Below, one piece after another: positions 31,562-58,435 of a stretch of 64,000 nucleotides of DNA (the first letter of the stretch is position 1; each line of letters opens with the position of its first letter). This DNA comes from Malacoraja senta. Taxonomy: Eukaryota. Under the pieces are notes generated by a model. That model was not told the origin of the DNA. It made no database searches and saw only the letters and a program-made list of their open reading frames with translations. The position numbers were made by a program, and so were the translations under genes. The DNA lies in the NCBI GenBank assembly GCA_038087875.1, contig CM075991.1, positions 1,612,001 through 1,676,000 of the forward strand, written 5' to 3'.

Positions 31562-32600
31562 CTAGAATAAGTAGGACCCATTGGGTCCCATGTTTACGCA
31601 GGAGGGCTGGACCCCCAAGGCAATATTCCACCTTTCTACCAATTCCTATATTCGTGGCCAGTGGGGGGGGGGGGGGCTTTCTGGAGCGCTAGTATGGGTG
31701 TTGTGGGCCGAAGGGACTGGTTTCCAGAGGGCTAGTATGTAAATTGTGGGCCAAAAAGGATACTTGGGCTGGCAGCTCAGTCACTCAGGCCTGGTTCACT
31801 GGCAGCTCAGTCACTCAGGCCTGGTGGGCTGGCAACTCAGTCACTCAGGCCTGGTGGGCTGGCAGCTCAGTTACTCAAGCCTGGCGGGCTGAAGCTCAGT
31901 CACTCAGGCCTGCTGGGCTGGCAGCTCAGTCGCTCAGGCCTGGTGGGCTTGCAGCTCAGTCACTCAGGCCTGGTAAACTGGCAGCTCAGTCACTCAGGCC
32001 TGGTGGGCTGGCAGCTCAGTCACACAGGCCTGTTGGGCTGGCAGCTCAGTGACCCAGGGCTGGTGGGCTGGCAACTCAGTCACTCAGGCCTGGTGGGCTG
32101 GCTGCTCAGTCACTCAGGTCTGGTGGACTGGCAGTTCAGTCACTCAGGCCTGGTGGGCTGGCAGAGCAGTCACTCAGGACTGGTGGGCTGGCAGCTCAGA
32201 AACTGCCAGAAATTCTGCCCAAAACAGGTTAGAGACTCTGTGAGAGATGACAGCAGATCACAGCAGTAAAGGAATAAAGTCGATCCTGGTCTGGATCTCA
32301 CAGGGAGCCAATGAAGGGATAGAGAAAAATACTGGGGTGAGGTTTAGTACTTACAGGGGGAATACTTAGTGATGGGCCGATGGGGCTCCTCCCGGGCTAG
32401 TACAGGCCTGATGGGCCGAAGGGACCGTTTAAAAAAAAGTGAGATCTCAGTGAAAGGCACTTTTTCGGGACATTTCCTGGCCTGTCATGGGGCCTATTGG
32501 GCCAAAATGCTCCTCCTGTGCTAATACGGGCATTTTGGGAAAGGCGACTGGTTTCTGGGCTAATAGGGGCCTTGTGGGCCAACACGAGTGGTTTCAGGTA
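31562..32600 (-). mobile_element. Helitron-like 3' portion running into the 41-bp satellite
   Basis: CTAG at 31562-31565 flanked by T on the minus strand, with hairpin GGACCC-ATT-GGGTCC at 31574-31588 as in the other copies. Confidence 0.65.
31766..32198. repeat. 30-bp minisatellite (GGGCTGGCAGCTCAGTCACTCAGGCCTGGT), about 14 copies
   Basis: Direct reading. Confidence 0.95.
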
Positions 32601-35600: not shown

Positions 35601-38600
35601 TTTCCATTTCAACCACAGTGCAAGGCCAACAACTCATTTCATTTCCATTTCATGCACAGTGCAAGGCCATCAACATATAATTTCCATTTCAAGCACAGTG
35701 CAAGTCCAACAACTCACTTCAATTCCATTTCAAGCACAGTGCCAGGCCAACAACTCATTTCATTTCGATTTCAAGCACAATGCAAGGCCAATAACTCATT
35801 TCATTTCCATTTCAACTTCAGCGCAAGGCCAACAACTCATGTCAAGCCCAGTGCAAGGCCAACAACTCATTTAATTTCAATTTCAAGCACAGTGCAAGGC
35901 CACCAACTCATTTAAGTTCCATTTCAAGCACAATGCAAGGCCAATAACTCATTACATTTCCATTTCAAGGACAGTGCAAGGCCAACAACTCATTTAATTT
36001 CAATTTCAAGCCCAGTGCAAGCCCATCAACTCATTTAAATTTCAAGCACTGTGCAAGGCCAACAACTCATTTCATTTCCATTTCAAGCACAGTGTAAGGC
36101 CAACAACTCATTTCATTTCCATTTCATCTTCAGTGCAAGGCCAACAACTCATTTCATTTCCATTTCAAGCACAATGCAAGGCCAATAACTCATTTCATTT
36201 CCATTTCAACTTCAGTGCAAGGCCAACAACTCATGTCAAGCCCAGTGCAAGGCCAACAACTCATTTAATTTCAATTTCAAGCACAGTGCAAGGCCACCAA
36301 CTCATTTAAGTTCCATTTCAAGCACAATGCAAGGCCAACAACTCTTTCATTTCCATTTCAAGCACAGCACAAGGTCAACAAATCATTTCATTTCCATTTC
36401 AAGCACAGTGCCAGGCCAACAACTCATTTCATTTCCATTTCAAGTACAGTGCAAGGCCAACAACTCATTTTATTTCCATTAGAAGCACAGTGCAAGGCCA
36501 ACAACTCATTTCAATTCCATTTCAAGCATAGTGCCAGTCCAACAACTCATGTCATTTTCATTTCAAGCACAGTGCAGGGCCAACAACTCATTTCATTTCC
36601 ATTTCAACTTCAGTGCAAGGCCAACAACTCATTCCAAGCCCAGTGCAAGGCCAACAACTCATTTAATTTCAATTTCAATAACAGTTGAAGGCCAACAACT
36701 CATTTCATTTCCATTTCAAGCTCAGTGAAGGCCAACAACTCATTTGTTTCCCTTTCAAGCACAGTGCAAGGCCATAAACTCATTTCATTTCCTTTTCAAG
36801 TACAATGCAAGGCCAACAACTCATTTCATTTCCCTTTCAAGCACAGTGCAAGGCCAACAACTCATTTCATTTCCATTTCAAGCACAGTGCCAGGCCAACA
36901 ACTCATGTCATTTTCATTTCAAGCACAGTGCAAGGCCAACAACTAATTTCATTTCCATTTCAACTTCAGTGCAAGGCCAACAACCCATTTTATTTCCATT
37001 TTTATAGCTCAGTGCAAGGGCAACAACTCATTTCATTTCCATTTCCAGCTCAGTGCAAGGCCAACAACTCATTTTATTTCCATTTCAAGCACAGTGCAAG
37101 GCCAACAACTCATTTTATTTCCATTTCAAGCGTAGTGCCAAGACAACAACTCATTTCATTTACATTTCAAGTACAGTGCAAGGCCAACTGCTCATAAATT
37201 TCAATTTCAAACACAGTGCAAGGCCAACAACTCATTTCAATTCCATTTCAAGCGTAGTGCCAAGCCAACAACTTGTCTCATTTTCATTTCAAGTACAGTG
37301 CAAGGCCAACTGCTCATTTTATTTCCATTTCAAGCACAGTGCAAGGCCAACAACATTGCATTTCCATTTCAAGTTCAGTGCAAGGCCAACAACTCATCTA
37401 ATTTCAATTTCAAGCACAATGCATGGCCAATAACTCCTTTCATTTCCATTTCAAGCACAGTGGAAGTCCAACTACTCATTTCATTTCCATTTCAACCACA
37501 GTGCAAGGCCAAGAACTCATTTCATTTCCATTTCAAGCACAGTGCAAGGCCATGAACATATAATTTCCATTTCAAGCACAGTGCAAGTCCAACAACTCAT
37601 TTCAATTACATTTCAAGCACAGTGCCAGGGCAACAACTCGTTTCATTTCCATTTCAAGCACAATGCAAGGCCAATAACTCATTTCATTTCCATTTCAACA
37701 TCAGTGCAAGGCCAACAACTCACTTCAAGCCCAGTGCAAGGCCAACAACTCATTTAATTTCAATTTCAAGCACAGTGCAAGGCCACCAACTCATTTAATT
37801 TCCATTTCAAGCAAAATGCAAGGCCAATAACTCATTCCATTTCAAGTTCAAGCACAGTGCAAGGCCAACAACTCATTTAATTTCAATTTCAAGCCCAGTG
37901 CAAGGCCAACAACTCATTTAATTTCAACTTCAAGCACTGTGCAAGGCCAACAACTCATTTCATTTCCATTTCAAGCACAGTGCAAGGCCAACAACTCATT
38001 TCATTTCCATTTCATCTTCAGTGCGAGGCCAATAATTCATTTCATTTCCATTTCAAGCACAGTGCAAGGCCAAAAACTCATTTCATTTCCATTTCAACCA
38101 CAGTGCAAGGCCAACAACCCATTTCATTTCCATTTCAAGCTCAGTGCAATGCCATCAATTCATATAATTTCCATTTCAAGCACAGTGCAAGGCCAACAAC
38201 TCATTTCAATTGCATTTCAAGTATCGTGCCAGGCCAACAACTCATTTCCATTTCAAGCACAGTGCAAGGCCAACAACTCATTTCATTTCCATTTCAACTT
38301 CAGTGCAAGGCCAACAACTCATTCCAAGCCCAGGCCAAGGCCAACAACTCATTTAATTTCAATTTCAAGCCCAGTGCAAGGCCAACAACTCATTAATTTC
38401 AATTTCAAGCACTGTGCAAGGCCAACAACTCATTTAATTTCAATTTCAATAACAGTGCAAGGACAACAACTCATTTAATTTTCATTTCAAGCACAATGCA
38501 AGGCCAACTGCTCATTTTATTTCCATTTCAAGCACAGTGCAAGGCCAACAACATTGCATTTCCATTTCAAGTTCAGTGCAAGGCCAACAACTCATCTAAT

Positions 38601-41600
38601 TACAATTTCAAGCACAATGCATGGCCAATAAATCCTTTCATTTCCATTTCAAGCACAGTGCAAGTCCAACTACTCATTTCATTTCCATTTCAACCACAGT
38701 GCAAGGCCAAGAACTCATTTCATTTCCATTTCAAGCACAGTGCAAGGCCATGAACATATAATTTCCATTTCAAGCACAGTGCAAGTCCAACAACTCATTT
38801 CAATTACATTTCAAGCACAGTGCCTGGGCAACAACTCATTTCATTTCCATTTCAAGCACAATGCAAGGCCAATAACTCATTTCATTTCCATTTCAACATC
38901 AGTGCAAGGCCAACAACTCATTTCAAGCCCAGTGCAAAGCCAACAACTCATTTAATTTCAATTTCAAGCACAGTGCAAGGCCACCAACTCATTTAATTTC
39001 CATTTCAAGCACAATGCAAGGCCACTAACTCATTACATTTCCATTGCAAGCACAGTGCAAGGCCAACAACTCATTTAATTTCAATTTCAAGCCCAGTGCA
39101 AGGCCAACAACTCATTTAATTTCAATTTCAAGCACTGTGCAAGGCCAACAACTCATTTCATTTCCATTTCAAGCACAGTGCAAGGCCAACAACTCATTTC
39201 ATTTCCATTTCATCTTCAGTGCAAGGCCAATAACTCATTTCATTTCCATTTCAAGCACAGTGCAAGGCCAAAAACTCATTTCATTTCCATTTCAACCACA
39301 GTGCAAGGCCAACAACCCATTTCATTTCCATTTCAAGCTCAGTGCAATGCCATCAATTCATATAATTTCCATTTCAAGCACAGTGCAAGGCCAACAACTC
39401 ATTTCAATTCCATTTCAAGTATCGTGCCAGGCCAACAACTCATTTCCATTTCAAGCACAGTGCAAGGCCAACAACTCATTTCATTTCCATTTCAACTTCA
39501 GTGCAAGGCCAACAACTCATTCCAAGCCCAGTGCAAGGCCAACAACTCATTTAATTTCAATTTCAAGCCCAGTGCAAGGCCAACAACTCATTAATTTCAA
39601 TTTCAAGCACTGTGCAAGGCCAACAACTCATTTAATTTCAATTTCAATAACAGTGCAAGGACAACAACTCATTTAATTTTCATTTCAAGCACAATGCAAG
39701 GCCAACAACTCATTTCATTTCAATTTCAAGCACAGTGCAAGGCCAACAACTCATTTCATTTCCATTTCATCTTCAGTGCAAGGCCAATAACTCATTTCAT
39801 TTCCATTTCAAGCACAGTGCAAGGCCAAAATCTCATTTCATTTCCATTTCAACCACAGTGCAAGGCCAACAACTCATTTCATTTCCATTTCAAGCTCAGT
39901 GCAATGCCATCAATTCATGTAATTTCCATTTCAAGCACAGTGCAAGGCCAACAACTCATTTCAATTCCATTTCAAGTATAGTGCCAGGCCAACAACTCTT
40001 TTCCATTTCAAGCACAGTGCAAGGCCAACAACTCATTTCATTTCCATTTCAACTTCAGTGCAAGGCCAACAACTCATTCCAAGCCCAGTGCAAGGCCAAC
40101 AACTCATTTAATTTCAATTTCAACAAACAGTGCAAGGACAACAACTCATTTAATTTTCATTTCAAGCACAATGCAAGGCCAACAACTCATTTCATTTCCA
40201 TTTCAAGCTCAGTGAAGGCCAACAACTCATTTGTTTCCCTTTCAAGCACAGTGCAAGGCCAACAACTCATTTTATTTCAATTTCAAGTACAATGCATGGC
40301 CAACAACTCATTTCATTTCCCTTTCAAGCACAGTGCAAGACCAACAACTCATTTCATTTCCATTTCAAGCACAGTGCCAGGCCAACAACTCATGTCATTT
40401 CCATTTCAAGCACAGTGCAAGGCCAACAACTCATTTCATTTCCATTTCAACTTCAGTGCAAGGCCAACAACTCATTTTATTTCCATTTTTATAGCTCAGT
40501 GCAAGGGCAACAACTCATTTCATTTCCATTTCAAGCTCAGCGCAAGGCCAACAACTCATTTTATTTCCAACCACAGTGCAAGGCCAACAACTCATTTCAT
40601 TTCCATTTCAAGTTCAGTGCAAGGCCAACAGCTCATTTCATTTCCATTTCAAGCTCAGTGCAAGACTAAAAACTCATTTAATTTCCATTTCAAGCACAGT
40701 GCAAGGCCAATAACTAATTTCATTTCCATTTCAAGCACAGTGCAAGGCCAACAACTCATTGCATTTCCATTTCAAGCACAGTGCCAGGCCAACAACTCAT
40801 TTCATTTCCGTTTCAAGCACAGTGGAAGGCCAACAACTCATTTCATTTCCATTTCAACTTCAGTGCAAGGCCAACAACTAATTAAATTTCCATTTAAAGC
40901 TCAGTGCAAGGTCAACAACTCATTTTATTTCAATTTCAAGCACAGTGCATGGCCAACAACTCATTTCATTTCCATTTCAAGCACAATGCAAGACCAACAA
41001 CTCATTTCATTTCCATTTCAAGCACAGTGCAAGGCCAACAACTCATTGCATTTCCATTTCAAGTTCAGTGCAAGGCCAACAACTCATTTCATTTCCATTT
41101 CAAGCTCAGTGCAAGGCCAACAACACATTTGTTTCCCTTTCAAGCACAGTGCAAGGCAAACAACTCGTTTGATTTCCCTTTCAAGCACAGCGCAAGGCCA
41201 ACAACTCTTTCATTTCCATTTCAAGCACAGCACAATGTCAACAAATCATTTCATTTCCATTTCAAGCACAGTGCCAGGCCAACAACTCATTTCATTAGCA
41301 TTTCAAGTACAGTGCAAGGCCAACAACTCATTTTATTTCCATTAGAAGCACAGTGCAAGGCCAACAACTCATTTCAATTCCATTTCAAGTATAGTGCCAG
41401 GTCAACAACTCATTTGCATTTCAAGTACAATGCAAGGCCAACAAATCATTTCATTTCCATTTCAACTTCAGTGCAAGACCAACAACTCATTCCAAGCCCA
41501 GTGCAAGGCCAACAACTCAGTTAATTTCAATTTCAATAGCAGTTGAAGGCCAACAACTCATTTAATTTTCATTTCAAGCACAATGCAAGGCCAACAACTC

Positions 41601-44600
41601 ATTTCATTTCCATTTCAAGCTCAGTGAAGGCCAACAACTCATTTATTTCCCTTTCAAGCACAGTGCAAGGCCAACAACTCATTTCATTTCCATTTCAAGC
41701 ACAGTGCCAGGCCAACAACTCATGTCATTTCCATTTCAAGCACAGTGCAAGGCCAACAACTCATTTCCTTTCCATTTCAACTTCAGTGCAAGGCCAACAA
41801 CTCATTGTATTTCCATTTTTATAGCTCAGTGCAAGGGCAACAACTCATTTCATTTCCATTTCAAGCACAATGCAAGACCAACAACTCATTTCATTTCCAT
41901 TTCAAGCACAGTGCAAGGCCAACAACTCATTGCATTTCCATTTCAAGTTCAGTGCTAGGCCAACAACTCATTTCATTTCCATTTCACGCTCAGTGCAAGG
42001 CCAACAACACATTTGTTTCCCTTTCAAGCACAGTGCAAGGCAAACAACTCATTTGATTTCCCTTTCAAGCACAGCGCAAGGCCAACAACTCTTTCATTTC
42101 CATTTCAAGCACAGCACAAGGTCAACAAATCATTTCATTTCCATTTCAAGCACAGTGCCAGGCCAACAACTCATTTCATTTCCATTTCAAGTACAGTGCA
42201 AGGCCAACAACTCATTTTATTTCCATTAGAAGCACAGTGCAAGGCCAACAACTCATTTCAATTCCATTTCAAGTATAGTGCCAGGTCAACAACTCATTTG
42301 CATTTCAAGTACATTGCAAGGCCAACAAATCATTTCATTTCCATTTCAACTTCAGTGCAAGACCAACAACTCATTCCAAGCCCAGTGCAAGGCCAACAAC
42401 TCAGTTAATTTCAATTTCAATAACAGTTGAAGGCCAACAACTAATTTAATTTTCATTTCAAGTACAGTGCAATGCCAACTGCTCATATAATTTCAATTTC
42501 AAGCACAGTGCAAAGCCAACAACTCATTTCAATTCCATTTCAAGCGTAGTGCCAAGCCAACAACTCATTTCATTTCCATTTCAAGCTCAGTGCAAGGCCA
42601 TCAACTCATATAATTTCAATTGCAAGCACAGTGCAAGGCCAACAACTCATTTCAATTCCATTTCAAGCGTAGTGCCAAGCCAACAACTCGTTTCATTTTC
42701 ATTTCAAGTACAGTGCAAGGCCAACTGCTCATTTTATTCCCATTTCAAGCACAGTGCAAGGCCAACAACTCATTGCATTTCCATTTCAAGTTCAGTGCAA
42801 GGCCAACAACTCATCTAATTTCAATTTCAAGCACAATGCATGGCCAATAGCTCCTTTCATTTCCATTTCAACAACAGTGCAAGGCCAACAACTCATTTCA
42901 TTTCCATTTCAAGCACAGTGCAAGGCCATCAACATATAATTTCCATTTCAAGCACAGTGCAAGTCCAACAACTCATTTCAATTCCATTTCAAGCATAGTG
43001 CAAGGCCAACAACTCGTTTCATTTCCATTTCAAGCACAATGCAAGGCCAACAACTCATTTAATTTCCATTTCAACTTCAGTGCAAGGCTAACTACTCATT
43101 TCAAGCCCAGTGCAAGGCCAACAACTCATTTAATTTCAATTTCAAGCACAGTGCAAGGCCACCAACTCATTTAATTTCCATTTCAAGCACAATGCAAGGC
43201 CAATAACTCATTACATTTCCATTTCAAGCACAGTGCAAGGCCAACAACTCATTTAATTTCAATTTCAAGCCCAGTGCAAGGCCAACAACTCATTTAATTT
43301 CAATTTCAAGCACTGTGCAAGGCCAACAACTCATTTCATTTCCATTTCAAGCACAGTGCAAGGCCAACAACTCATTTTGTTTCCATTTCAAGCACAATGC
43401 AAGGCCAACAACTCATTTCATTTCCCTTTCAAGCACAGTGCAAGGACAACAACTCATTCCATTTCCAATTCAAGCGTGGTGCCAAGCCAACAACTCATTT
43501 CATTTTCATTTCAAGTACAGTGCAATGCCAACTGCTCATATAATTTCAATTTCAAGCACAGTGCAAAGCCAACAACTCATTTCAATTCCATTTCAAGCGT
43601 AGTGCCAAGCCAACAACTCATTTCATTTCCATTTCAAGCTCAGTGCAAGGCCATCAACTCATATAATTTCAATTTCAAGCACAGTGCAAGGCCAACAACT
43701 CATTTCAATTGCATTTCAAGCATAGTGCCAAGCCAACAACTCGTTTCATTTTCATTTCAAGTACAGTGCAAGGCCAACTGCTCATTTTATTTCCATTTCA
43801 AGCACAGTGCCAGGCCAACAACTCATTGCATTTCTATTTCAAGTTCAGTGCAAGGCCAACAACTCATCTAATTTCAATTTCAAGCACAATGCATGGCCAA
43901 TAGCTCCTTTCATTACCATTTCAAGGACAGTGCAAGGCCAACAACTCATTTCATTTCCATTTCAACCACAGTGCAAGGCCAACAACTCATTTCATTTCCA
44001 TTTCAAGCACAGTACAAGGCCATCAACATATAATTTCCATTTCAAGCACAGTGCAAGTCCAACAACTCATTTCAATTCCATTTCAAGCATAGTGCAAGGC
44101 CAACAACTCGTTTCATTTCCATTTCAAGCACAATGCAAGGCCAACAACTCATTTAATTTCCATTTCAACTTCAGTGCAAGGCTAACTACTCATTTCAAGC
44201 CCAGTGCAAGGCCAACAACTCATTTAATTTCAATTTCAAGCACAGTGCAAGGCCACCAACTCATTTAATTTCCATTTCAAGCACAATGCAAGGCCAATAA
44301 CTCATTACATTTCCATTTCAAGCACAGTGCAAGGCCAACAACTCATTTAATTTCAATTTCAAGCCCAGTGCAAGGCCAACAACTCATTTAATTTCAATTT
44401 CAAGCACTGTGCAAGGCCAACAACTCATTTCATTTCCATTTCAAGCACAGTGCAAGGCCAACAACTCATTTTGTTTCCATTTCATCTTCAGTGCAAGGCT
44501 AATAACTCATTTCATTTCCATTTCAAGCACAGTGCAAGGCCAAAAACTCATTTCATTTCCATTTCAACCACAGTGCAAGGCCAACAACTCATTTAATTTC

Positions 44601-47144
44601 CATCTCAAGCTCAGTGCAATGCCATCAATTCATATAATTTCCATTTCGAGCACAGTGCAAGGCCAACAACACATTTCAATTCCATTTGAAGTATAGTGCC
44701 AGGCCAACAACTCATTTCCATTTCAAGCACAGTGCAAGGCCAACAACTCATTTCATTTCCATTTCAACTTCAGTGCAAGGCAAACAACTCATTCCAAGCC
44801 CAGTGCAAGGCCAACAACTCATTTAATTTCAATTTCAATAACAGTGCAAGGCCAACAACTCATTTAATTTTCTTTTCAAGCACAATGCAAGGCCAACAAC
44901 TCATTTCATTTCCCTTTCAAGCACAGTGCAAGGACAACAACTCATTCCATTTCCAATCAAGCGTGGTGCCAAGCCAACAACTCATTTAATTTTCATTTCA
45001 AGTACAGTGCAATGCCAACTGCTCATATAATTTCAATTTCAAGCACAGTGCAAAGCCAACAACTCATTTCCATTCCATTTCAAGCGTAGTGCCAAGCCAA
45101 CAACTCATTTCATTTCCATTTCAAGCACAGTGCAAGGCCAACAACTCATTTAATTTCCATTTTAACTTCAGTGCAAGGCCAACAACTCATTTTGTTTCCA
45201 TTTTTATAGCTCAGTGCAAGGGCAACAACTCATTTCATTTCCATTTCAAGCTCAGTACAAGGGCAACAACTCATTTCATTTCCAATTCAAGCGTAGTGCC
45301 AAGCCAACAACTCATTTCATTTAATTTTCAAGTACAGTGCAAGGCCAACTGCTCATATAATTTCAATTTCAAGCACAGTGCAAGGCCAACAACTCATTTG
45401 CATTTCAAGCACAATGCAAGGCCAACAACTCATTTCATTTCCATTTCAACTTCAGTGCAAGGCCAACAACTCATTTCATTTGCATTTCAAGTACAGTGCA
45501 AGGCCAACAACTCATTTCATTTCCATTTCAACTTCAGTGCAAGGCCAACAACTCATTTAATTTCCATTTCATGCTCAGTGCAAGGCCAACAACTCATTTT
45601 GTTTCCATTTCATGCACAGTGCAAGGCCAACAACTCATTTCCTTTCCATTTCAATTCAGTGCAAGTCCAACAACTCATTTCATTTTCAATTCAAGCTCAG
45701 TGCAAGGCCAACAACTCATTTTATTTCCCTTTCAAGCACAGTGCAAGGCCACCAACTAATTTCATTTCCATTTCAAGCATTGTGCAAGGCAAACAAATCA
45801 TTTTATTACCATTTCAAGCACAGAGCAAGGCCAACAACTCATTTCGTTTCCATTTCAAGCTCAGTGCAAGGCCATCAACTCACATAGTTTCAATTTCAAG
45901 CACAGTGCAAGGCCAACAACTCATTTCAATTCCATTTCAAGCATAGTGCCAGGCCAACAACTCACTTCATTTGCATTTCAAGTAAAGTGCAAGGCCAACA
46001 ACTCATTTTATTTCCATTTCAAGCACAGTGCAAGGCCAACAACGCATTTAATTTCCCTTTCAAGCACAGTGCAAGGCAAACAACTCATTTCATTTCCATT
46101 TCAAGCGCAGTGGAAGGTCAATTACTCATTTCATTTCCATTTCAAGCACAGTTCCAGGCCAACAACTCATTTCATTTCCATTTCAATCACAGTGGAAGGC
46201 CAACAACTCATTTCATTTCCATTTCAACTTCAGTGCAAGGCCAACAACTGATTTTATTTCCATTTGAAGCACAATGCAAGACCAACAACTCATTTCATTT
46301 CCATTTCAAGCACAATGCAAGACCAACAACCCACTTCATTTCCATTTCAAGCACAGTGCAAGGCCAACAAATCATTCCATTTTCATTTCAAGCACAGTGC
46401 AAGGCCATCAACTCATTGTGTTTCCATTTCAAGCACAGTGCCAGGCCAGGAACTCATTTCATTTCCCTTTCAAGCACAGTGCAAGGCTAAAAACTCATTT
46501 CATTTCCATTTCAAGCACAGTGCAAGGCCAACAACTCATTTCATTTCCATTTCTACTTCAGTGCAAGGCCACCAACTCATTTCATTTCTATTTCAAGCTC
46601 ATTGAAATGCCAACAACTCATTTTATTTCCATTTCAAGCACAGTGCAAGGCCAACAACTCATTTCATTTCCATTTCAATTTCAGTGCCAGGCCAAGAACT
46701 CATTTAATTTCCATTTCAATCTCAGTGCAAGGCCAACAACTCATTTTATTTCATTTTCAAGCAGTGCGAGGCCAACAACTCATTTCATTTCCATTTCAAG
46801 CACAGTGCAAGGCCAACACCACGTTTCATTTCCAATTCAAACAGTGCAAGGCTAATAATTCATTTCATTTCAATTTCAAGCACAGTGCAAGGCCAATAAC
46901 TCATTTCATTTTCATTTCAACCACAGTGCAAGGCCAACAACTCATTTCATTTCCATTTCTAGCACAGTGCAAGGCCAACAACTTATTTCATTTCCATTTC
47001 AACTTCAGTGCAAGGCCAACAACTCATTTCATTTCCAATTCAAGCTCAGTGCAAGACCAACAACTCATTTCATTTCCCTTTCAAGCACAGTGCAAGGCCA
47101 ACAACTAATTTCATTTCCATTTCAAGCATTGTGCAAGGCCAACA
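32601..47144. repeat. 41-bp satellite array, main block
   Basis: Consensus CAAGCACAGTGCAAGGCCAACAACTCATTTCATTTCCATTT with shorter deletion variants; roughly 350 units. Confidence 0.98.
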
Positions 47145-47880
47145 TGATAATATCCTACTTAATAATGACATATTTTATATTAGAATGGATTAAGTAAAAT
47201 ATTAGCTTGCGTGTCGCCTGAGTATAACCAAGCTTTTTCTGGGTGCTGAAATAAGCTGAAGTTTGCAGAAATGTGGGAATCAGGAAATTGGAGGCCAGCT
47301 TTCAAACTGCCGTTCAAGCTGGTTCCTGTTATGTGCCAAGTAGAACACCATTCACAATGGTGAGAGGGGATATACTTCCTGGGAAGGTCCAGGCTTCTGT
47401 TTACAGCAGCATTGAGAGAGGATGAGCTTCTTGAGAAATTGGTATTCTCTGCTAACATGAATTTCTGTGGGTAGCTGATTCCGAGATTGTATTGTTAAGA
47501 CAGAATTGTAATGGTTGTGTTTCTTGACTAACTTCCTGCTTTTGAATGTTTGGGATCAACAGTTTTATTATTGAAAGAAGCAAATGATGGCAAGACTATT
47601 GTATCAGTGACAAGTATACTTTGAATGGGTAGAGCTGTGATTGATTTGTATTAAACATCATTGCTGCCATTCTGTATGAACATGTGACTATGTTTCCAAA
47701 ATAGTATAAAAAAAGCTGTATGTCTCCATTCATTAGAGTGTTAGCCCAGGGAGAGCCAAGTATCGGCTGTTTACTTGGTTTTGTATCTCCTAACACTTTC
47801 GCCGGCTCAGTGATCAGTAAAGCGTGTTGGTTTTACCTAACTTATTGTGAGTTGCCTGTTTTAAGAAATGAACTTTAACA
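47145..47880 (+). repeat. 5' LTR (736 bp)
   Basis: TGATAATATC...TTTAACA, a direct repeat of 55497-56234. TATAAA at 47705-47710 and an AGTAAA poly(A)-like signal at ~47816. Confidence 0.97.
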
Positions 47881-47881
47881 T

Positions 47882-47916
47882 TGGCGTAGTCGGCAGGATT
47901 CGAACCTGCGCGGGGA
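47882..47916 (+). promoter_or_regulatory. Primer-binding site complementary to tRNA-Ser, extended to about 35 nt
   Basis: TGGCGTAGTCGGCAGGATTCGAACCTGCGCGGGGA starts 1 nt after the LTR and is the reverse complement of the vertebrate tRNA-Ser 3' end plus CCA (tRNA sequence recalled from memory). Confidence 0.9.
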
Positions 47917-48227
47917 CCCCATCAACAGCTGACTGTGCAAGAGGTTGCAGAGGTTGCCGGGATTGGAAGGGAGACAGCTGAGCTCTATCGGCCCCCTTGT
48001 AAGACCGACTCCCCTAGAAACTCCCGGGAACATCTGTGATCCTTCATCAGAGGTTGATCCAGGTTCCCTGCCGAGGTACTTAATACAGACAACAAAGGTA
48101 AGACCAGTTGGGCTTTGTGTATGTATTTTTTCAGAAGGAATTGTGTACGTATTTTTAAGAAGGGCTTGTGTATATTTTTAAGAAGGAATTGAGCGGTTTC
48201 TCTCTCTTTTTCTCTCTCTATTTTTTC

Positions 48228-48263
<36 letters not shown>

Positions 48264-48570
48264 TTTCCCCTTTCTCTCTCTCTTCAAAGGGCTCGTCGGC
48301 CTTGTTGAGACATCCGAAGTTTGTCGGGTTGAGATACAGGGGACGATGTGTGCGCCTGGCTCGTTGAGACATCCGAAGAGTTGTCGGGTTGAGAAATAAG
48401 CGGCGTTGTTTTTTTTAAAGAATTAAGAAGTCTGCCAAGTTGAGTAACTGGGGTCTCGGTTAGCGGGTCTGCCTAGTTGAAATACTTGGTGCGTTGTTCT
48501 TGTTTTTTAAAGAGTTGAGAAGTCTGCTTTCACTTTCTCTTTCTCTCTTTCTCTTTCTCTCTCTCTATCT

Positions 48571-50334
48571 ATGGGGAATAATCTGGATAAAAGTGAAGGG
48601 GGCACGGCCGTCCAACATATGTGTTATTTGAATCCTAAAAGTAACAAAGACTATAGAATATTAAGTTATAAGCTAACCAAACGTTTGGGAGATGAATCCT
48701 GGCCAGTAGGAGGCACTTGGAATGTAGAGACAATTAAAAGAGCAGAGCTGTTGATATGGGAAAGGGATGCAGGAAAGAAATGGAAAAAAATAATTAAGGA
48801 ATGGAAAGCAGAGGCAGAGAAGAAGCAAGATGGGAGTAGGGATCGGAGTTGGATGGATAATGCATGTAAGAGAGGGATAGAGTTAAGGAACAAGGATGGC
48901 ACTATGAAAGGATGGAAAGTGTTGCAGCTAGAATGCCAGTGGGCAGAGGAACAAGAGAAAAGAACTAAGAGACAGGCGGAAGGTAAAAAACAGGTGATGG
49001 TTAATAAAAAAAAACAGTACTGGTAAATTCTCCGGAGGAGACCTCATGTCTGGTACGGCGACCCTGTTTGGTAGTGAAGATGAGGATTTAGATAATCCCG
49101 GGAGGCACCCACCTCCCTATGCCCCACCAGTAGCAATGACATCCTTACCTGTAGCAGCTCCGGTAGTAACACCCATATACCCCGAAATTCCGCCCTTACA
49201 AAGCTCCCCAGAATTGGGAGCACGGGAAAACACACCCAGATGGGAAAAACCAAACGAAGAAATGAGTGAGGTAATAGAAAGTGCACAAAATTTAGCAATT
49301 GACCCTGAGGGATCAATCGGGGAGCGAGTAAAAAACAACCCTAGAAGGGCTGCGCAGAACCTCCCTATGAGAACTGTGCCAAACCCTAGGGCAGGACAAG
49401 GCAATCAGGAAGATACCATGCAGATATATGGACCATGGAAATCATATGAACAATGTATGATACGGGATAAAGCCCCAAATCGCCACAAGACCTCTCAGGA
49501 CTGGCTACGGACCGTGATATTTGGTCCATGACTATGTCGCTTCTGTCACCAGCCGAACAACAGAAGTGCAAGAATACTATGGAACATCAGACATGGCAGG
49601 CACTAAAGAACACACCAGGGCATGCAGACCATGCAGTTTGTGTACATTTTATGATGACCAATCTATTTGAATGTTTGAAAAAAACAATTAACATGTCGGT
49701 GGTCCTCGATTGTAAGCCCGGTCCAAAAGAAGACCCCCAGTCGTATCTGGATCGTTTCACTAGTATCTATGGAACCCATGCAGGAGACCCTGTATACAAT
49801 GCTGGAAACAAATCCCCAGCTTTTAATGCTATATTGATGAGTTGTCTCCCGTTCAAAGTGCAGGCAATGGTTAAAACAAACTTAAACTGGGCGGACAATG
49901 ACATAACCCAAATGAGACGTGCAGTAACTGCCTTTTGGGCTGATGGTGCCGGAAACACGGCTGCCACTAGTTCACCCAGAATAAAAACAGAATATTATAT
50001 GTGGGAACCAGCAGCTGAGGAATGCTCACAGATTCTGGCCATGAGACCAAGGAATGGGATGCGCCCTGGTAGAGGAAGGGGTTTTCAGCCTAGACCACAA
50101 TGGAACGGAGAATTCCGGGGGGGACGAGGACAAAACCACCCAGGGCAGGGAAGACCCCAAGGTGAGAGAGGAGCTGGAGGAAGCTGTTTTAAGTGTGGGG
50201 GAATAGGGCATTGGGTGAGGGACTGCCCCTCTCGTGTCACAGGGGAAGGACGGGGAAGACGGCTCCGTACTCCACCAACAACCCGTTTTCCCAATGATCC
50301 ACCGACTCCACTGTACAACACCTATTCCCACTAA
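48571..50334 (+). pseudogene. gag: Retroviral Gag, frameshifted
   Basis: N-terminal MG (myristoylation-type), PPPY late domain, MHR-like PKEDPQSYLDRF, one CCHC knuckle CFKCGGIGHWVRDC. Split over three ORFs. Confidence 0.9.
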
Positions 50335-50650
50335 TCACCAACCCCGATGAAGAACCCATAGTAAACATGATGCTGGGGGACACCAGAGTTCCGTTTTTGA
50401 TTGATACAGGAGCAACCTCATCTACCCTGAATCAGGAGCTTGCGGCATCTCTGGGAGTTCCCATGTCAGACCATGTAACACGATTATCAGGATTGGACGG
50501 GAAAGTACGGTGTTACCCCCTAACAGCCTCTGACTGTAACCTATGGACAGGAACAGTGCACCATCTCCTTTTCCCTTACCCCATATCTTGGCTGCAATCT
50601 CGCAGGCAGAGACCTATTAATAGGATTAAAAGCAGGAATTACCTGCACTG
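50298..50650 (+). pseudogene. pro: Retroviral aspartic protease, frameshifted
   Basis: FLIDTGAT active site; CNLAGRDLL occurs in the shifted frame. Confidence 0.9.
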
Positions 50651-50712
50651 ACGAGGGAATTCACCTCCAGACCCAGAAGATGATGCACACACACTTCCCA
50701 ACACCTCAATGA

Positions 50713-51060
50713 TGGGCCATTGATCTTTTGTCAGCACCAGTCTTTGGAAATACACCCAATCCACATGTGACTCTATTTTATGATCCCACGGGTTGCAATC
50801 CTGAAATGGGAGATTATTTTAGGCCACTGATAGGGAAAGCGACCACAGTCCGCTTGATAGGAACAGTGTCAGGCGAACCTGGCACTGCCGTGATAGTGCA
50901 AGTGGAAGAAGGGTTGTGGAAACAGAATGCTTCCCTAGTGGCACCGCATGTAACCACCTCAGTGAGGGCAGATCACTCAGCAAAAGAGCTGGGGTACCTC
51001 ACCTACGAATTACGCAATCAAGCAGATAACATACTGGGTGAGCAATATTTTTCTCAGGGA
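50713..51060 (+). other. 2H phosphoesterase-like domain in Pol between protease and RT
   Basis: PHVTL (His at 50764) and PHVTT...HSAKELG (His at 50947), in frame with RT. Confidence 0.75.
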
Positions 51061-51139
51061 ATACTAGAGTACTGGAAAGAGTGCCAGATTGTTGAAGGAA
51101 TCATCCGACGACACCAGCCGCCGAAGAACGACATAGACA

Positions 51140-54100
51140 AACTTCAGATTTGGTCGACATCACTGCATGAGGTAGGACTGACTTATTGTGCTCCTGTAAT
51201 GATCACGCTCAAGCCGGATGTCCGCCTCCCTGCAGTCCACCAATATCCATTAAAACCAGAGGCAGTGGCAGGAATACAGCAACTGGTACAGTCCCTTTTA
51301 TACCAGGGTATATTGGTGCAGTGTCATTCACCATGTAACACCCCGATCTTCCCGATACCCAAGCTCGGACGCTCAGAGTGGAGGCTAGTACAGGACCTTC
51401 GTGCAATTAATGACATTGTTACGCCAATGCACGCCATCGTACCTAACCCTGCAACTATCCTGAGCCAGGTTCCCGCCTCTGCAACCATCTTCACCGTAAT
51501 TGATCTACAGCATGCATTCTTCGCTGACCCTCTACATCCCGATTGCCAATACCTTTTTGCGTTTACATATGAAGGACAACAATATACGTGGACACGCCTA
51601 CCGCAAGGCTTTGTACATTCACCCATGATATTTTCCCAGTGCTAGCAGACCAGTTAAAGACATTAACCCTCCCGCAAGGCTCAGCTGTAATTCAGTATGT
51701 TGATGACCTGCTCCTCGCCAGCTCTGATGAGGCCAGCAACATCACTGACACAGCAAAGTTATTAGAAGCCTTACACGCTTGGGGGTATGTGATCCCTCAG
51801 AGGAAAGTTTCAGAGGGCAAAAAGGAGGTTAAATTTCTCGGAGTTATGATTAGTGCTACTGAAAGAGCACTCACTCCAGCAAGAGTGGACCCTATTATCC
51901 GATACCCAAAACCAGAAACCCCCAAACAAATGAGAGCCTTTTTGGGGTTAGTGAACTTTTGTCGCCAATGGATTCCCGATGTTGTGCTCTATACAAAGCA
52001 TCTATCACCGCTGGCTTCTGCAAATGCTGATCAACATTTTTCCCTCAATGAGAAACAGGCTGAGGCTTTTATAGCCCTAAAAGATGCATTAGCCTCTGCC
52101 CCAGCCATCAGCAGACCACTATATGATAGGCCATTTCATCTGTATGTTACAATAATCCAAGACTGTGCATCAGCGTACTGACGCAAACACATGGGGATGT
52201 TAAACGACCAGTAGCTTACTTCTCACTTCGCCTGGATGTGGTAGCACGCGGCTACCCCCCTTGCACTCAGATTTTGCCTGGTATACATGCCGCTGTCTCG
52301 GCTGCCGCAAACATAACTATGCATCAACCGGTGATCGTATTTACGACTCATTGTGTCACCGCATTAATGAATGCAGGCCAAACAAAATACCTCTCCCAGG
52401 CACGCCTGGGCCGTTATGAACTGACATTGTTGAATAATCAAAATTTGACCTTTCGGCATTGTTCTACAATAAATCCATCTGCCTTTTTGACAGAGCCACC
52501 TGAGCCTTGCACAGAGCCGCCCCACAATTGTGAGTTGGCCAATGACTTATTGACAAACACACGGGGGGGATTGTCCGACGTACCATTGGAAGGCAACATA
52601 CCAACATGGTTTGTCGATGGGTCCTCCATGATTATTCCTGAAACAGGACAGCGAGCTTCCGGCTATGCAGTAGTAAACGAGTCACAGATGATTTTGGAAG
52701 AAGGAAGATTTCAGATTCCGTTATCAGCACAACAGGCAGAACTATTTGCCTTAACAAGAGCCTGCATATTAGTAACGGACAAACAAATTAATATCGATAC
52801 TGATTCCGGATACGTCTTCGGCGTTGCTCATGACTTTGGCGCTCTCTGGCAACACAGAGGATTCCTGACTTCGGCAGGAACACCCATTAAGAATGCCCTT
52901 TTTGTGCGTAATTTGCTTAATGATGCTACCAGAACAGCTGGTCGTTATTAAATGTGCCGCCCACACTGGTGTTGGGGACCCTATAACCAAAGGCAGTGCA
53001 TTTGCCGATAGTGTAGCCAAACAAGCAGCCTGCGCATCCAAATGCATAGTGACAGCAGGTAAACAGATGCTAGCAAATAGAACGGTCTTGCCAGATATGA
53101 GGGAGGTATGTACATTACAGAGGGACGCCTCTGATAACCAAAAACAACTATGGAAACAAGAGGGCTGTGCTATTGATTCCACCACGGGACTTTGGCTTAC
53201 CCCTCTAGGACAAGTTTGTGTACCTGATGCATTTTTACCTGTCTTGCTAACATATATTCACTCCCTTACACATGCTGGTAAGGAGGGAATGATTAGGATG
53301 GCGAACGAAACATGGTGGCACCCGAAAATTCGGCAAGAGGCACTGAAGCAGGCTTCTGAATGTAAAATCTGCCAACGAAGTAATCCAGGCAAACCGATTA
53401 AGATACCCTCAGGAGTGATGCCAATGCCATCACGACCGTTTGAATGCATACAGATTGATTTTATTGAAATGCCAAGGGCCCATTGCTATAAATATTGCCT
53501 AGTGATTTTAGATTCATTTAGCAGGTGGATTGAAGCTCTACCAACCACTAATAATACTGCTGAAACTACGGTAACATTGTTGTTAAGAGAAGTTATTCCC
53601 AGGTTTGGCCTACCTACTGTCATAAGCTCGGACAATGGTCCCCATTTTATTGCCACTATTAATAAGGAACTATGTGCACATTTTAATATCAGACAGCAGT
53701 TTCACTGTGTACACCACCCACAGGCATCCGGGATGGTGGAAAGAGCCAATGGGGCATTGAAAAACAAAATTACCAAGCTGATGGGAGAAATGTGACAGAC
53801 ATGGATTAAAGTATTACTCTTAGCATTATTTGAAATGAGGGTAACGCCCCATAGTGCTACGAAGCTATCCCCAGCAGAAATTATCTATGGTAAACCTCTA
53901 CGAACCCCCTGGGGAGCAAGCATCACTTATGAAGGAACCCTAGATTTACACGCATTAAACGATGAAATGATAACCTATGTTCAGAGGCTCACCCATATTC
54001 TGTCAGCATTACATCTACAGGTAAAGGAGTCCCAGAGGCCGGTACCTGACGGTGACCAGAGCGAAATAGTCCAACCAGGGGACTATGTACTTATAAGAAA

Positions 54101-54305
54101 TTGGGACCGTAAGAAACTTGATGCCTGGTGGAATGGACCATACCAAGTGTTGCTGACTACACCAACGGCTGTGAAGGTTGAGAACCATCCTCGCTGGATA
54201 CATCTTACAGACTGTAAGAAAATTGGACTTGAACAAAAAGGACATGGCACAGACACTTCCAATTCTGTTGCTTGTCCTGGGAATGGCCCAGATGACCTGG
54301 ATTAA
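51140..54305 (+). pseudogene. pol: Pol: RT, RNase H, integrase; several frameshifts and a stop at 53793-53795
   Basis: RT: QYPL, WRLVQDLR, LPQGF, YVDD. RNase H: WFVDGS, SAQQAEL, TDS. Integrase: HSLTH/CKIC, QIDF, SDNG, VERAN, GPY. Confidence 0.95.
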
Positions 54306-55465
54306 TACCTTTTTGTCTATGAGTTATGAATTTGCTCGTAGGGGGAATGGCAGTGACTGTTGGGTGTGCACTTCTGTTCACCACAACAGTGCGGAAGGTG
54401 TACCGCTACTGCCAATACCCCTGAATCTAACTGAACGGCTGGCCCTACTCTGTTTTCGCAACGCTACAGCATCTAGTAGGTGCCGAGTGATCAACCACGG
54501 GTAAATGGGACCCGTAGGTATGGGGGACTTATATATGATAATTTTAAAGGATAGTACACCCCCCCCATTTAAACCAGGGTGGAAGGTGAATGAAACTAAG
54601 GTATGGAAGATACCCCGGATGAGAATAATAAGCGATCCTCGTATATTATCAAATGCCTCATGTCATTGCAACTACCTAGAAAAGGGTTTATATTTGGGAA
54701 ACAGCTCATGCACTACAATCTCGCCTCAGGGACCACCACGATCAGTAAATGGAACATACTTTGTGTGTGGGTCATGAGCATATCCGTGGCTGCCAGGGAT
54801 GCCACTGGAAGACCACAGCAATTGGGAAAGGAAGTGGGGAAAGAACTACCGCTGGAATGGGTGCTGCTATATAGCCTATGTTGTTCCCTATATGAGGATG
54901 GTCCAGGATCTTACACAAGTAGATAAAACCACAAGTCAAAAGGGGTATCTCGGAAACTGAGAGGTATAGGATGATCATTTCCCCCCCGTATGGTGTAGCT
55001 AGAGCCGCTAAGGAATTAAAAAATATGGCATCGGCTATGGAAACTTTAGCTAATTCCACTGCACAGGCTTTTATGGATGTACGGCAATCCATTCAGGACA
55101 TCACTGCTGAAATGGTGGCGATGAGAGTAGTAGTCCTCCAGAACCGAATGGCATTAGATTTTATTCTAGCAGAGAAAGGGAGTACTTGTGCTATTATAGG
55201 GCGCGAATGTTGCATTTACATTCCCGATGAATCCTCTAACATTACAGATTTAGCAGCACATATCACCAGAGAAATAAAGAAGATTACAGAGGTTGGGGAA
55301 GAAATGCATAACATTAATAAAGGTGGAGAATGTTGGCCATTTAGCATGTTTGGAGGAATATGGGGAATGATAATTCACTATGGATCTTTTGTACTGTTGA
55401 TTGTTGTATTAATCTATGTACTGAAATGCTTGAAGCCTTTAGTATGTACTAACCAAGGACTGTAG
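54244..55465 (+). pseudogene. env: Gamma-type Env; stops at 54502 and 54775, frameshift near 54925
   Basis: Signal peptide MAQTLPILLLVLG, SU CWVC, QVKR cleavage-like site, ISD LQNRMALDFILA, CX6CC (CAIIGRECC), TM anchor. Confidence 0.92.
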
Positions 55466-55483
55466 TGTTATCATTCATATGAT

Positions 55484-55496
55484 AAATAGGAGGGAA
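55484..55496 (+). promoter_or_regulatory. Polypurine tract
   Basis: AAATAGGAGGGAA directly before the 3' LTR. Confidence 0.85.
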
Positions 55497-56234
55497 TGAT
55501 AATATCCTAGTTAATAATGACATATTTTATAATTAGAATGGATTAAGTAAAATATTAGCTTGCGTGTCGCCTGAGTATAACCCAGCTTTTTCTGGGTGCT
55601 GAAATAAGCTGACGTTTGCAGAAATGTGGGAATCAGGAAATTGGAGGCCAGCTTTCAAACTGCCATTCAAGCTGGTTCCTGTTATGTGTCACGTAGAACA
55701 CCATTCACAATGGTGAGAGGGGATATACTTCCTGGGAAGGTTCAGGCTTCTGTTTACGGAAGCCTTGAGAGAGGATGAGCTTCTTGAGAAATTGGTATTC
55801 TCTGCTAACATGAATTTCTGTGGGTAGCTGACATTCCGAGATTGTATTGTTAAGACAGAATTGTAATGGTTGTGTTTCTTGACTAACTTCCTGCTTTTGA
55901 ATGTTTGGGATCAACAGTTTTATTATTGAAAGAAGCAATTGATGGCAAGACTATTGTATTAGTGACAAGTATACTTTGAATGGGTAGAGCTGTGATTGAT
56001 TTGTATTAAACATCATTGCTGCCATTCTGTATGAAATTGTGACTATGTTTCCAAAATAGTATAAAAAAGCTGTATGTCTTCATTCATTAGAGTGTTAGCC
56101 CAGGGAGAGCCAAGTATCGGCGGTTTACCTGGCTTTGTATCTCCTAACACTTTCGCCGGCTCAAAGATCAGTAAAGCTTGTTGGTTTTACCTAACTTATT
56201 GTGAGTTGTCTGTTTTAAGAAATGAACTTTAACA
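55497..56234 (+). repeat. 3' LTR (738 bp)
   Basis: Direct repeat of the 5' LTR; manual count of about 22 substitutions and 3 small indels. Confidence 0.97.
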
Positions 56235-56645
56235 AACAACTCATTTCATTTCCATTTCAAGCACAGAGCAAGGCCAACAACTAATTTCATTTCCATTTCA
56301 AGCACATTGCAAGGCCACCAACTCATTTCATTTCCATTTAAAGCGCAGTGCAAGGTCAACAACTCATTTTATTTCAATTTCAAGCACAGTGCAAGGCCAA
56401 CAACTCATTTCATTTCCATTTCAAGCACAATGCAAGATCAACAACTCATTTCATTTCCATTTCAAGCACACTGCAAGACCAACAACTCATTTCATTTCCA
56501 TTTCAAGCACAGTGCAAGGTCAACAAATCATTCCATTTGCATTTCAAGCACAGTGCAAGGCCATCAACTCATTTAATTTCCATTTCAAGCACAGTGCCAG
56601 GCCAGGTACTCATTTAATTTCCCTTTCAAACACAGTGCAAGGCCA
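56235..56645. repeat. 41-bp satellite, middle block
   Basis: Same consensus, resuming in phase after the provirus. Confidence 0.97.
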
Positions 56646-57463
56646 GGATTACTGCAGCGGCCCCTACAGCCCGTCTGTCTTTTTTTTTATTTTTGTCTAG
56701 TTAAATGTAGTTGTTTGTGTTTTTTTTGTACTGTTTTAATTGTGTATATGTGGGGGGCGGGGGGGGGGGAGGGGGAAACTTTAAAAATCTCTTCCCTGCA
56801 CGGGAGACCCGACCTTTTCCCTGTCGGGTCTCCGTTGTCGTTGGGGCCTAGCTCCGTGGAGCGGCCTCCGACCGGGACGACCTGGGGGCTCCAGTCGCGG
56901 AGCCTGTGGAGCTGCGGACTCACCATCGTGGGGCTGGCCGGCCTCGGAGCGCGGGGAGCGGTGGTGGCTCGTTGCTGCGGCCCGACTCCGGAGCTCCAGC
57001 TGCAGCTGCAGACCTGTGGACTGTGATATCGGGAGTTCGCGGGTCCGGGTGAGAGACCGCTTTCCGGAGCTCCCGCAACGCAACTTCTCCAGCTCGAGTC
57101 GCGGGGTTGGAACGACCGGAGCGGGGCCGTAAATCCAGCGCCCGCCGGGGGCTCCAACTTTGTGACTTTTGGGCCCGGAGCGAGGCAGTACACCGCCCGG
57201 CGGGGCCTCAACGGCCGTGGGACTTAACATTGCCCGCCTGGGGCTTCAACATCGGGAGAAAAATGGTGCAGGGGAGAGAAAAGACTTTGCCTTCCATCAC
57301 AGTGAGGAGGAGATTCACTGTGATGGATGTTTTTCTGTAAATTGAATTGTTTGTGTGTCTTGTAGGAATTGTTTTGTTTGTATGGCTGTGGAAACAGAGT
57401 TTCGTTTGAGCCTCTTTGAGGTTCAAATGACAAGAAATAAATCAAATCAAATCAAATCAAATC
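56646..57463 (+). mobile_element. Non-coding non-LTR retroposon (SINE or LINE 3' end) with a (TCAAA)n tail, inserted in the satellite
   Basis: Ends AATAAA(TCAAA)n and splits GGCCA|ACAACTC. Related T-rich/G-run/GC-rich segments occur at 60710-61030 and 63600-64000. Confidence 0.7.
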
Positions 57464-58435
57464 ACAACTCATTTCATTTCCATTTCGAGCACAGTGCAAG
57501 GCCAACAACTCATTTCATTTCCATTTCAAGCACAATGCAAGGCCATCAACTCATTTCATTTCCATTTCAAGCACAGTGCCAGGCCAACAACTCATTTCAT
57601 TTCCCTTTCAAGCACAGTGCAAGGTCAACAACTCATTTAATTTCCATTTCAAGCACAGTGCAAGGCCAACTCATTTCATTTCCATTTCAACTTCAGTGCA
57701 AGGCCACCAACTCATTTCAATTCTATTTCAAGCTCAGTGCAATGCCAACAACTCATTTCATTCCCATTTCAAGCACAATGCAAGATCAACAACTCATTTC
57801 ATTTCCATTTCAAGCTCACTGCAAGACCAACAACTCATTTCATTTCCATTTCAAGCACAATGCAAGGTCAACAAATCATTCGATTTGCATTTCAAGCACA
57901 GTGCAAGGCCATCAACTCATTTAATTTCCATTTCAAGCACAGTGCCAGGCCAGGTACTCATTTAATTTCCCTTTCAAACACAGTGCAAGGCCAACAACTC
58001 ATTTCATTTCCATTTCGAGCACAGTGCAAGGCCAACAACTCATTTCATTTCCATTTCAAGCACAATGCAAGGCCATCAACTCATTTCATTTCCATTTCAA
58101 GCACAGTGCCAGGCCAACAACTCATTTCATTTCCCTTTCAACTTCAGTGCAAGGCCACCAACTCATTTCAATTCTATTTCAAGCTCAGTGCAATGCCAAC
58201 AACTCGTTTTATTTCCATTTCAAGCAAAGTGCAAGGCCAACAACTCATTTAATTTCCATTTCATGTTCAGTGCAAGGCCAACAACTCATTTAATTTCCAT
58301 TTCAAGCTCAGTGCAAGGCCAACCACTCATTTTATTTCCTTTTGCAGCACAGTGCAAGGCCAACATCTCATTTCATTTCCATTTCTCGCACAGTGCAAGG
58401 CCAACAACTCATTTCATTTCCATTTCAAGCACAGT
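57464..58435. repeat. 41-bp satellite, right block
   Basis: Same consensus. Confidence 0.97.

Follow-up and report, generated by a model that had tools for sequence, protein, structure and literature searches.

Retroviral Pol is composed of protease, reverse transcriptase (RT) and integrase, plus a dUTPase in some viruses. 2H phosphoesterase domains have been described in fish retroviruses and in WDSV, as the accessible text of PMC9503650 recounts with attribution to Mazumder et al. (2002), and some epsilon-like teleost endogenous retroviruses (ERVs) encode CNPase or macro domains, a finding that PMC4977317, in the portion available, attributes to Basta et al. (2009). Both sources agree with a preliminary description of the present locus, made from sequence alone, which had remarked on earlier notice of such inserts in some fish retroviral polyproteins. 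That such a domain exists is established, and the copy described here is an ordinary dead member. The ray-finned-fish elements resemble it in being class I ERVs with CNPase-like coding sequence, and teleost relatives were found directly in this work; the same portion of PMC4977317 presents them as carrying occasional additional ORFs, whereas in the present family the domain is built in frame into Pol and follows RT in both chondrichthyans and teleosts. The domain, noted since 2002, would represent a fourth Pol enzyme, under purifying selection in the retroviruses of cartilaginous and bony fishes. No functional study of a retroviral 2H domain was found in the literature searched, most subscription papers lying outside its reach; 'retrovir' and 'walleye' are absent from the main texts of PMC11410667 and bioRxiv 10.1101/2025.08.21.671373, whose supplementary tables could list one.

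The stretch analyzed (the window) comprises 64,000 nucleotides of the skate Malacoraja senta (GCA_038087875.1, contig CM075991.1, positions 1,612,001 to 1,676,000 of the forward strand). It holds a provirus with the following features, given in window coordinates.

47141-47144, plus strand: 5' target-site duplication AACA, read from the sequence; second AACA copy at 56235-56238
47145-47880, plus strand: 5' LTR with TG...CA ends, identical to the 3' LTR in 714 of 740 columns
47882-47916, plus strand: primer-binding site, a 35-nt perfect complement to the 3' end of host tRNA-Ser(AGA)
48571-50334, plus strand: gag, split over three frames, with a CCHC zinc knuckle near its end
50352-50709, plus strand: aspartyl protease and linker (DTG at 50403, GRDLL at 50605-50619, frameshift near 50525)
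50710-50712, plus strand: in-frame TGA stop directly 5' of the 2H domain
50713-51114, plus strand: predicted CNPase-like 2H phosphoesterase domain, 134 aa (AlphaFold, Foldseek against PDB, BFVD)
50761-50781, plus strand: first motif P-H-V-T-L-F-Y, with His18, Thr20 and Tyr23 (spacing as for CNPase Phe235)
50944-50994, plus strand: second motif P-H-V-T (His79, Thr81) and HSAKELG, the loop and helix start matching CNPase helix alpha7
51151-52951, plus strand: reverse transcriptase and RNase H, with frameshifts near 51640, 52170 and 52920
52920-54305, plus strand: integrase (H2C2, rve, MLV-type C-terminal domain) with one in-frame stop
54175-55465, plus strand: fragmented env remnant with a TLV_coat match in the transmembrane part
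55497-56234, plus strand: 3' LTR, with a purine-rich tract just 5' at about 55484-55496

The provirus as a whole occupies 47145-56234, is flanked by a 4-bp target duplication and was inserted within a 41-bp satellite array. A Pfam scan recovered zinc knuckle, aspartyl protease, RT, RNase H, integrase with an MLV-type C terminus and TLV_coat env. The order LTR-gag-pro-pol-env, a YVDD RT, the integrase C terminus and the TLV_coat env identify a class I (gamma/epsilon-like) retrovirus; a closer tie to WDSV and WEHV (genus Epsilonretrovirus) is suggested by a single character, the predicted structural match of the 2H domain. Judged by its LTRs, which are 96.5% identical, the provirus is young. It is also a dead copy: gag, pol and env are all broken, pol by frameshifts near 50525, 51640, 52170 and 52920, and Pol is interrupted upstream of the 2H domain.

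The two PHVT motifs that had drawn attention to the region lie at 50761-50772 and 50944-50955 with their histidines 61 aa apart, and are followed by HSAKELG at 50974-50994; all could be placed by coordinate between protease and RT. Together with WSTSLHEVG at 51151-51177 they share one open frame of 310 codons (50713-51645) that continues into RT, so the earlier statement that everything is in frame with RT holds for the motifs. The protease side calls for a correction: GRDLL, 177 codons from WSTS, is in the domain's frame, but the TGA at 50710-50712, which went unmentioned, stands between, and the protease active site DTG is in a different frame. The extent first proposed, 50713-51060, begins correctly and ends too early, losing the last strand; the folded domain of about 134 aa in the AlphaFold model reaches about 51114. 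In 20,000 shuffles of a 146-aa stretch, two H-hydrophobic-[TS] motifs 50-90 aa apart arose in 0.25% and the looser pair of H-x-[TS] motifs in 2.1%. We accept the domain as real beyond these odds because of its conservation and predicted fold.

An AlphaFold2 model was built on an alignment of 63 rows, drawn from this genome and other sources, the named ones being sharks, rays and teleosts, and reached pLDDT 93.9 and pTM 0.87. In a Foldseek search of the PDB, all matches listed (ranks 1-50) were CNPase or its fish homologue RICH, with TM-scores on the query of 0.61-0.74; the Foldseek probability for CNPase was 1.00, and 29 matches had E of 0.001 or less. These ranks are mostly variants of one mouse protein, leaving no room for other 2H families such as AKAP7, NS2, Acb1 and fungal Trl1. 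The 2H fold proposed from the motifs is thus borne out by prediction, and the domain carries the two H-hydrophobic-T/S motifs of the 2H superfamily. Against BFVD the best match was the WEHV-1 polyprotein Q9WHI8 (1317 aa, E 3.3e-7), followed by the WDSV polyprotein A4GTG3 (1159 aa, E 5.3e-5) and an unnamed 1072-aa entry (E 3.7e-4). BFVD labels the two walleye entries 'Envelope polyprotein' with the aligned range not shown; from entry length and the accessible text of PMC9503650 we infer that the match falls within Pol. The WDSV and WEHV domains, like the skate domain, belong to fish epsilon-type retroviruses, whose polyprotein models are its top two structural matches in BFVD; they differ in sharing only about 20% identity with it, and the skate copy is endogenous and resides in a cartilaginous fish. 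Next in BFVD came giant-virus and unnamed proteins, including Tupanvirus and Marseillevirus RNA ligases (E 1e-3 to 6e-2, TM 0.44-0.61).

Sequence comparisons agree with the structural kinship to CNPase, weakly. A profile (A3, 40 rows) searched against PDB gave 16 matches at E of 10 or less, 15 of them CNPase or RICH at E 0.16-2.1 and largely variants of a single mouse protein. The family profile aligned to the host CNP exon (E 8.4e-4 in a set of 24 segments); hhalign gave this alignment a probability of 53% and E 1.4e-4, and it sets HSAKELG without a gap on the CNP stretch VHAVQTG. The top ESM Atlas cluster, for the window domain and one distant relative, was tRNA-ligase cyclic phosphodiesterase (PF08302, 0.96). 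The best per-member Pfam matches were Acb1 (E 0.002, 2 of 25 members) and CNPase (E 0.011, 2 of 63). The window domain itself matched nothing in Pfam, PF05881 included, and a genome search with PF05881 returned the host gene alone and missed the retroviral copies.

The catalytic pairs of CNPase are His230/Thr232 and His309/Thr311, its base sandwich is formed by Phe235 and Val321, and Arg307 is a further pocket residue; helix alpha7, which vertebrate CNPases conserve and other 2H enzymes lack, has been proposed to limit substrate size (PMC4643303, accessible text). Vertebrate CNPase and fish RICH (2yoz, 1woj, 2i3e; PF05881) share with the retroviral domain the predicted fold, two HxT motifs, an aromatic residue at His+5 (the Phe235 position; of 63 rows, 59 have Tyr and 3 have Phe) and a helix after motif 2, whose predicted counterpart of alpha7 spans model residues 90-103 and starts 11 residues past the second histidine. 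They are unlike it in length (about 210 aa versus 134), in motif spacing (79 versus 61) and in sequence, at 14-19% identity, and the retroviral domain has no N-terminal kinase-like domain. At the Val321 position 50 of 63 rows have Lys, and at the Arg307 position (His-2) the window copy has Ala; because of these substitutions and the shorter spacing, the retroviral pocket differs from that of CNPase. As modeled, the domain is CNPase-type yet not CNPase proper, having neither Val321 nor Arg307, failing the PF05881 cut-off and being more compact.

The prediction further assigns the domain to the CNPase/RNA-healing cyclic phosphodiesterase type, apart from the LigT-group 2',5'-phosphodiesterases NS2, VP3 and AKAP7. 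This bears on the possibility that the domain destroys 2-5A and so blocks OAS-RNase L, as coronavirus NS2 and rotavirus VP3 do, which we consider improbable. MHV NS2, MERS NS4b, rotavirus VP3, AKAP7, Acb1 and the avian poxvirus PDE belong to the same superfamily, share its catalytic motifs and are virus-encoded. Known 2-5A cleavers, however, fall in the eukaryotic-viral LigT group with a spacing of about 80 residues (PMC8406329, accessible text). Here the spacing is 61, the structural neighbors among the matches listed are CNPases where LigT proteins would mark that group, and VP3 appears far down in BFVD (E 0.2-0.3, TM 0.38-0.40). Two observations favor 2-5A cleavage: OAS is expanded in the host, where 51 exon matches on contig C4 amount to a cluster of about 8-9 gene copies, and Pfam 2_5_RNA_ligase2 is weakly matched by 7 of the 63 members, at a best E of 0.024. 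An exon-wise search found no RNase L in the host, weak evidence of absence that counts against such cleavage. A KEN domain was matched just once in the host genome, among 4 candidates scored, by a sequence that reads like IRE1.

The catalytic residues are kept throughout the family. Across the 63 aligned rows, His18 and His79 each occur in 61, Thr20 in 57, Thr/Ser81 in 61, Tyr23 in 59 (Phe in 3), Lys91 in 50 and Gly94 in 60, and in distant rows, where overall identity is 17-40%, the catalytic residues are still the best kept. With 150 of 475 candidates scored, the skate's own genome yields at least 151 domain matches, whose identity falls from 94% to about 28%, and 10 of the best 30 lie within open frames of 1,332-1,338 codons. 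Beyond the window copy, 69 loci were examined (29 next-best matches and 40 chosen among more divergent ones); most are broken, each histidine is retained in 66 and both H-x-T/S motifs in 62, the remaining 7 being altered or unaligned, although these loci were picked up by similarity, which biases toward motif retention. Conservation of the histidines over family copies, which the preliminary description had put forward as a check on its reading, is therefore seen both in the alignment and at the genomic loci.

When 1.84 billion representatives were searched with a profile, 82 matched at E of 0.001 or less, four of them through spurious repeat matches. Named sources among 20 looked-up matches and their cluster members were skates, catshark, devil ray, cichlids, Denticeps, zebrafish, catfish and pipefish; a grouper relative was found in addition. 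Retroviral pol domains were present in 13 of 14 long matches or cluster members scanned, and the nearest named relative was from the skate Amblyraja radiata (83% identity), as would be expected if the host is itself a skate or ray. Distances for the domain and for RT correlate (Spearman 0.64, 0 of 2000 permutations) across 27 sequences that include near-duplicates, the pairs and the tree being non-independent samples; this co-tracking fits, and does not prove, a single old capture inherited with pol.

Selection on the domain was evident in its substitution ratios. Between the window copy and four relatives, dN/dS was 0.19-0.25 with bootstrap upper bounds of 0.36-0.50, evidence of purifying selection from the kind of dN/dS comparison proposed earlier. 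Nine of 10 pairs, which share branches, were below 1 at p<0.05, and the tenth was 0.63 and not significant. More distant pairs gave 0.13-0.37 wherever dS was measurable, and close sibling pairs 0.41-1.5. The window copy differs from its closest sibling by 2 synonymous and 9 non-synonymous changes, a dN/dS of 1.5 from small counts, and looks neutral in that comparison. A high ratio against the sibling and a low one against the relatives indicate that the domain was constrained during viral replication and has drifted since integration.

Survival of both motifs in the window copy needs no special explanation. The preliminary description had found this survival in a decayed provirus telling; the young LTRs, the break in Pol upstream and the sibling comparison speak against that view. 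For host co-option of the window copy, one could cite the frame open over 310 codons from 50713 and an Amblyraja radiata RefSeq model (P0003) that fuses part of such a domain and RT to a zinc-finger array. We regard co-option as very improbable, given the excess of non-synonymous differences from the sibling, the retention of both motifs in 62 of 69 copies that are mostly broken, a first in-frame ATG that lies past the first motif, and the absence of the first histidine from P0003.

The RT start has a lower dN/dS (0.06-0.07) than the 2H domain (about 0.2-0.25), a weaker constraint on the latter that would suit an RNA or nucleotide binder, or a decoy against host CNP, with catalysis secondary. 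CNP is tabled as a Gag-MA interactor that inhibits HIV-1 particle formation in the accessible text of PMC7471995. Still, such a role has only a slim chance in our estimate, since the two histidines (61 of 63 rows each) and Thr/Ser residues (57 and 61) are the best-kept positions at 17-40% identity.

As to function, we give an even chance to the proposal that the retroviral Pol 2H domain acts within the virion or reverse-transcription complex, hydrolyzing 2',3'-cyclic phosphates carried by RNA ends or nucleotides. From its position, the domain would be synthesized at Pol levels and packaged along with Pol into the virion. By CNPase chemistry, one histidine would activate water and the other would protonate the leaving group, leaving a 2'-phosphate beside a free 3'-OH. 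The enzyme would act on the ends of nuclease-cut RNA, whether viral genome or tRNA primer, or on 2',3'-cyclic nucleotides. For the 2H domains of RNA viruses, proposals in PMC9503650 (accessible text) include such RNA-end processing in some cases and immune evasion in others. The RNA-healing CPD modules of fungal Trl1 (PF08302) and giant-virus RNA-ligase fusions resemble the domain in being its top ESM neighbor (0.96) and next BFVD neighbors and in compact size; they are unlike it in that the domain is fused to protease and RT in a provirus with neither ligase nor kinase. The Pfam scan of the provirus found no ligase to complete repair, and a 2'-phosphate beside the freed 3'-OH may hinder priming, which counts against RNA-end healing. 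Fold class is also a poor predictor of substrate, because 2H substrate ranges vary between and within structural groups (bioRxiv 10.1101/2025.08.21.671373, accessible text). Among the substrates first suggested, then, cyclic-phosphate RNA ends come out favored and 2-5A disfavored, with cGAMP as the main rival.

cGAS detects retroviral DNA, and a CNPase-type fold repurposed against cyclic dinucleotides (2'3'-cGAMP) and delivered with the core could damp cGAS-STING sensing of reverse-transcribed DNA; we hold this as a tentative possibility. The weak Acb1 Pfam match (E 0.002) points in this direction, and the conserved Lys at the Val321 position could hold a second phosphate. Viruses have adapted 2H folds to cGAMP again and again (PMC11410667, accessible text). 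On the other side, neither Acb1 nor the poxvirus PDE occurs among the Foldseek PDB matches listed (ranks 1-50) or the named top BFVD matches, several BFVD entries being unnamed. An enzyme made at Pol's low level is better suited to acting locally than to serving as a sink for the whole cell. Helix alpha7, moreover, is proposed to restrict substrate size in CNPase (PMC4643303, accessible text). That an old fish-retrovirus clade, spanning sharks, rays and teleosts, packages a CNPase-derived Pol enzyme that destroys cGAMP during reverse transcription seems rather doubtful. If it were true, retroviruses would possess a nuclease against immune messengers, a CNPase-type fold turned on cyclic dinucleotides; if instead cyclic-phosphate hydrolysis is the function, RNA-end healing would be a step of retroviral replication. 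The domain could also bear on the physiological substrate of CNPase; it is short, at 134 aa, with good predicted folding, and assays on it would be inexpensive.

The primer-binding site at 47882-47916 matches the 3' end of the host tRNA-Ser(AGA) gene over 35 nt with zero mismatches. In a survey of 45 loci, 12 of them without an anchor, the window's site alone among 33 anchored sites exceeded 19 nt, the other 32 being variable, 2-19 nt long and some with T tracts. The long site appears to stem from one event, with RT reading past the usual 18-nt stop and switching strands on short homology, and we see no link to the 2H domain. In several young copies (L076-L086, L096-L118), a T tract replaces primer-site positions 7-11 and leaves an initial match of 5-6 nt, so that the priming of these copies calls for an explanation. 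Copies L085 and L086 are nearly identical to L077-L084 internally and differ at the LTR 3' ends, and the window LTR end is different again; by sequence, this is LTR swapping within the family.

Further observations concern the surroundings of the domain. The gene models P0003 and P0088 join a partial 2H domain and RT, or gag-pol, to C2H2 zinc fingers; P0003 begins past the first histidine and so lacks half the active site. Such models may be annotation artifacts, with ERVs lying inside zinc-finger clusters, or real chimeric transcripts. The tandem OAS genes, about 8-9, lie at G000:C4:6100000-6375000, with C5659 listed alongside. A short direct repeat duplicates part of the leader at window 48295-48400, between primer-binding site and gag, with CT-rich flanks. 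The 41-bp satellite spans about 32500-47140 and 56235-58400 of the window, with more than 300 overlapping 300-nt matches. Several repeats, probably LINE/SINE fragments, are interspersed over window 1228-29619 in either orientation, with complementarity reaching 98% over 654 nt.
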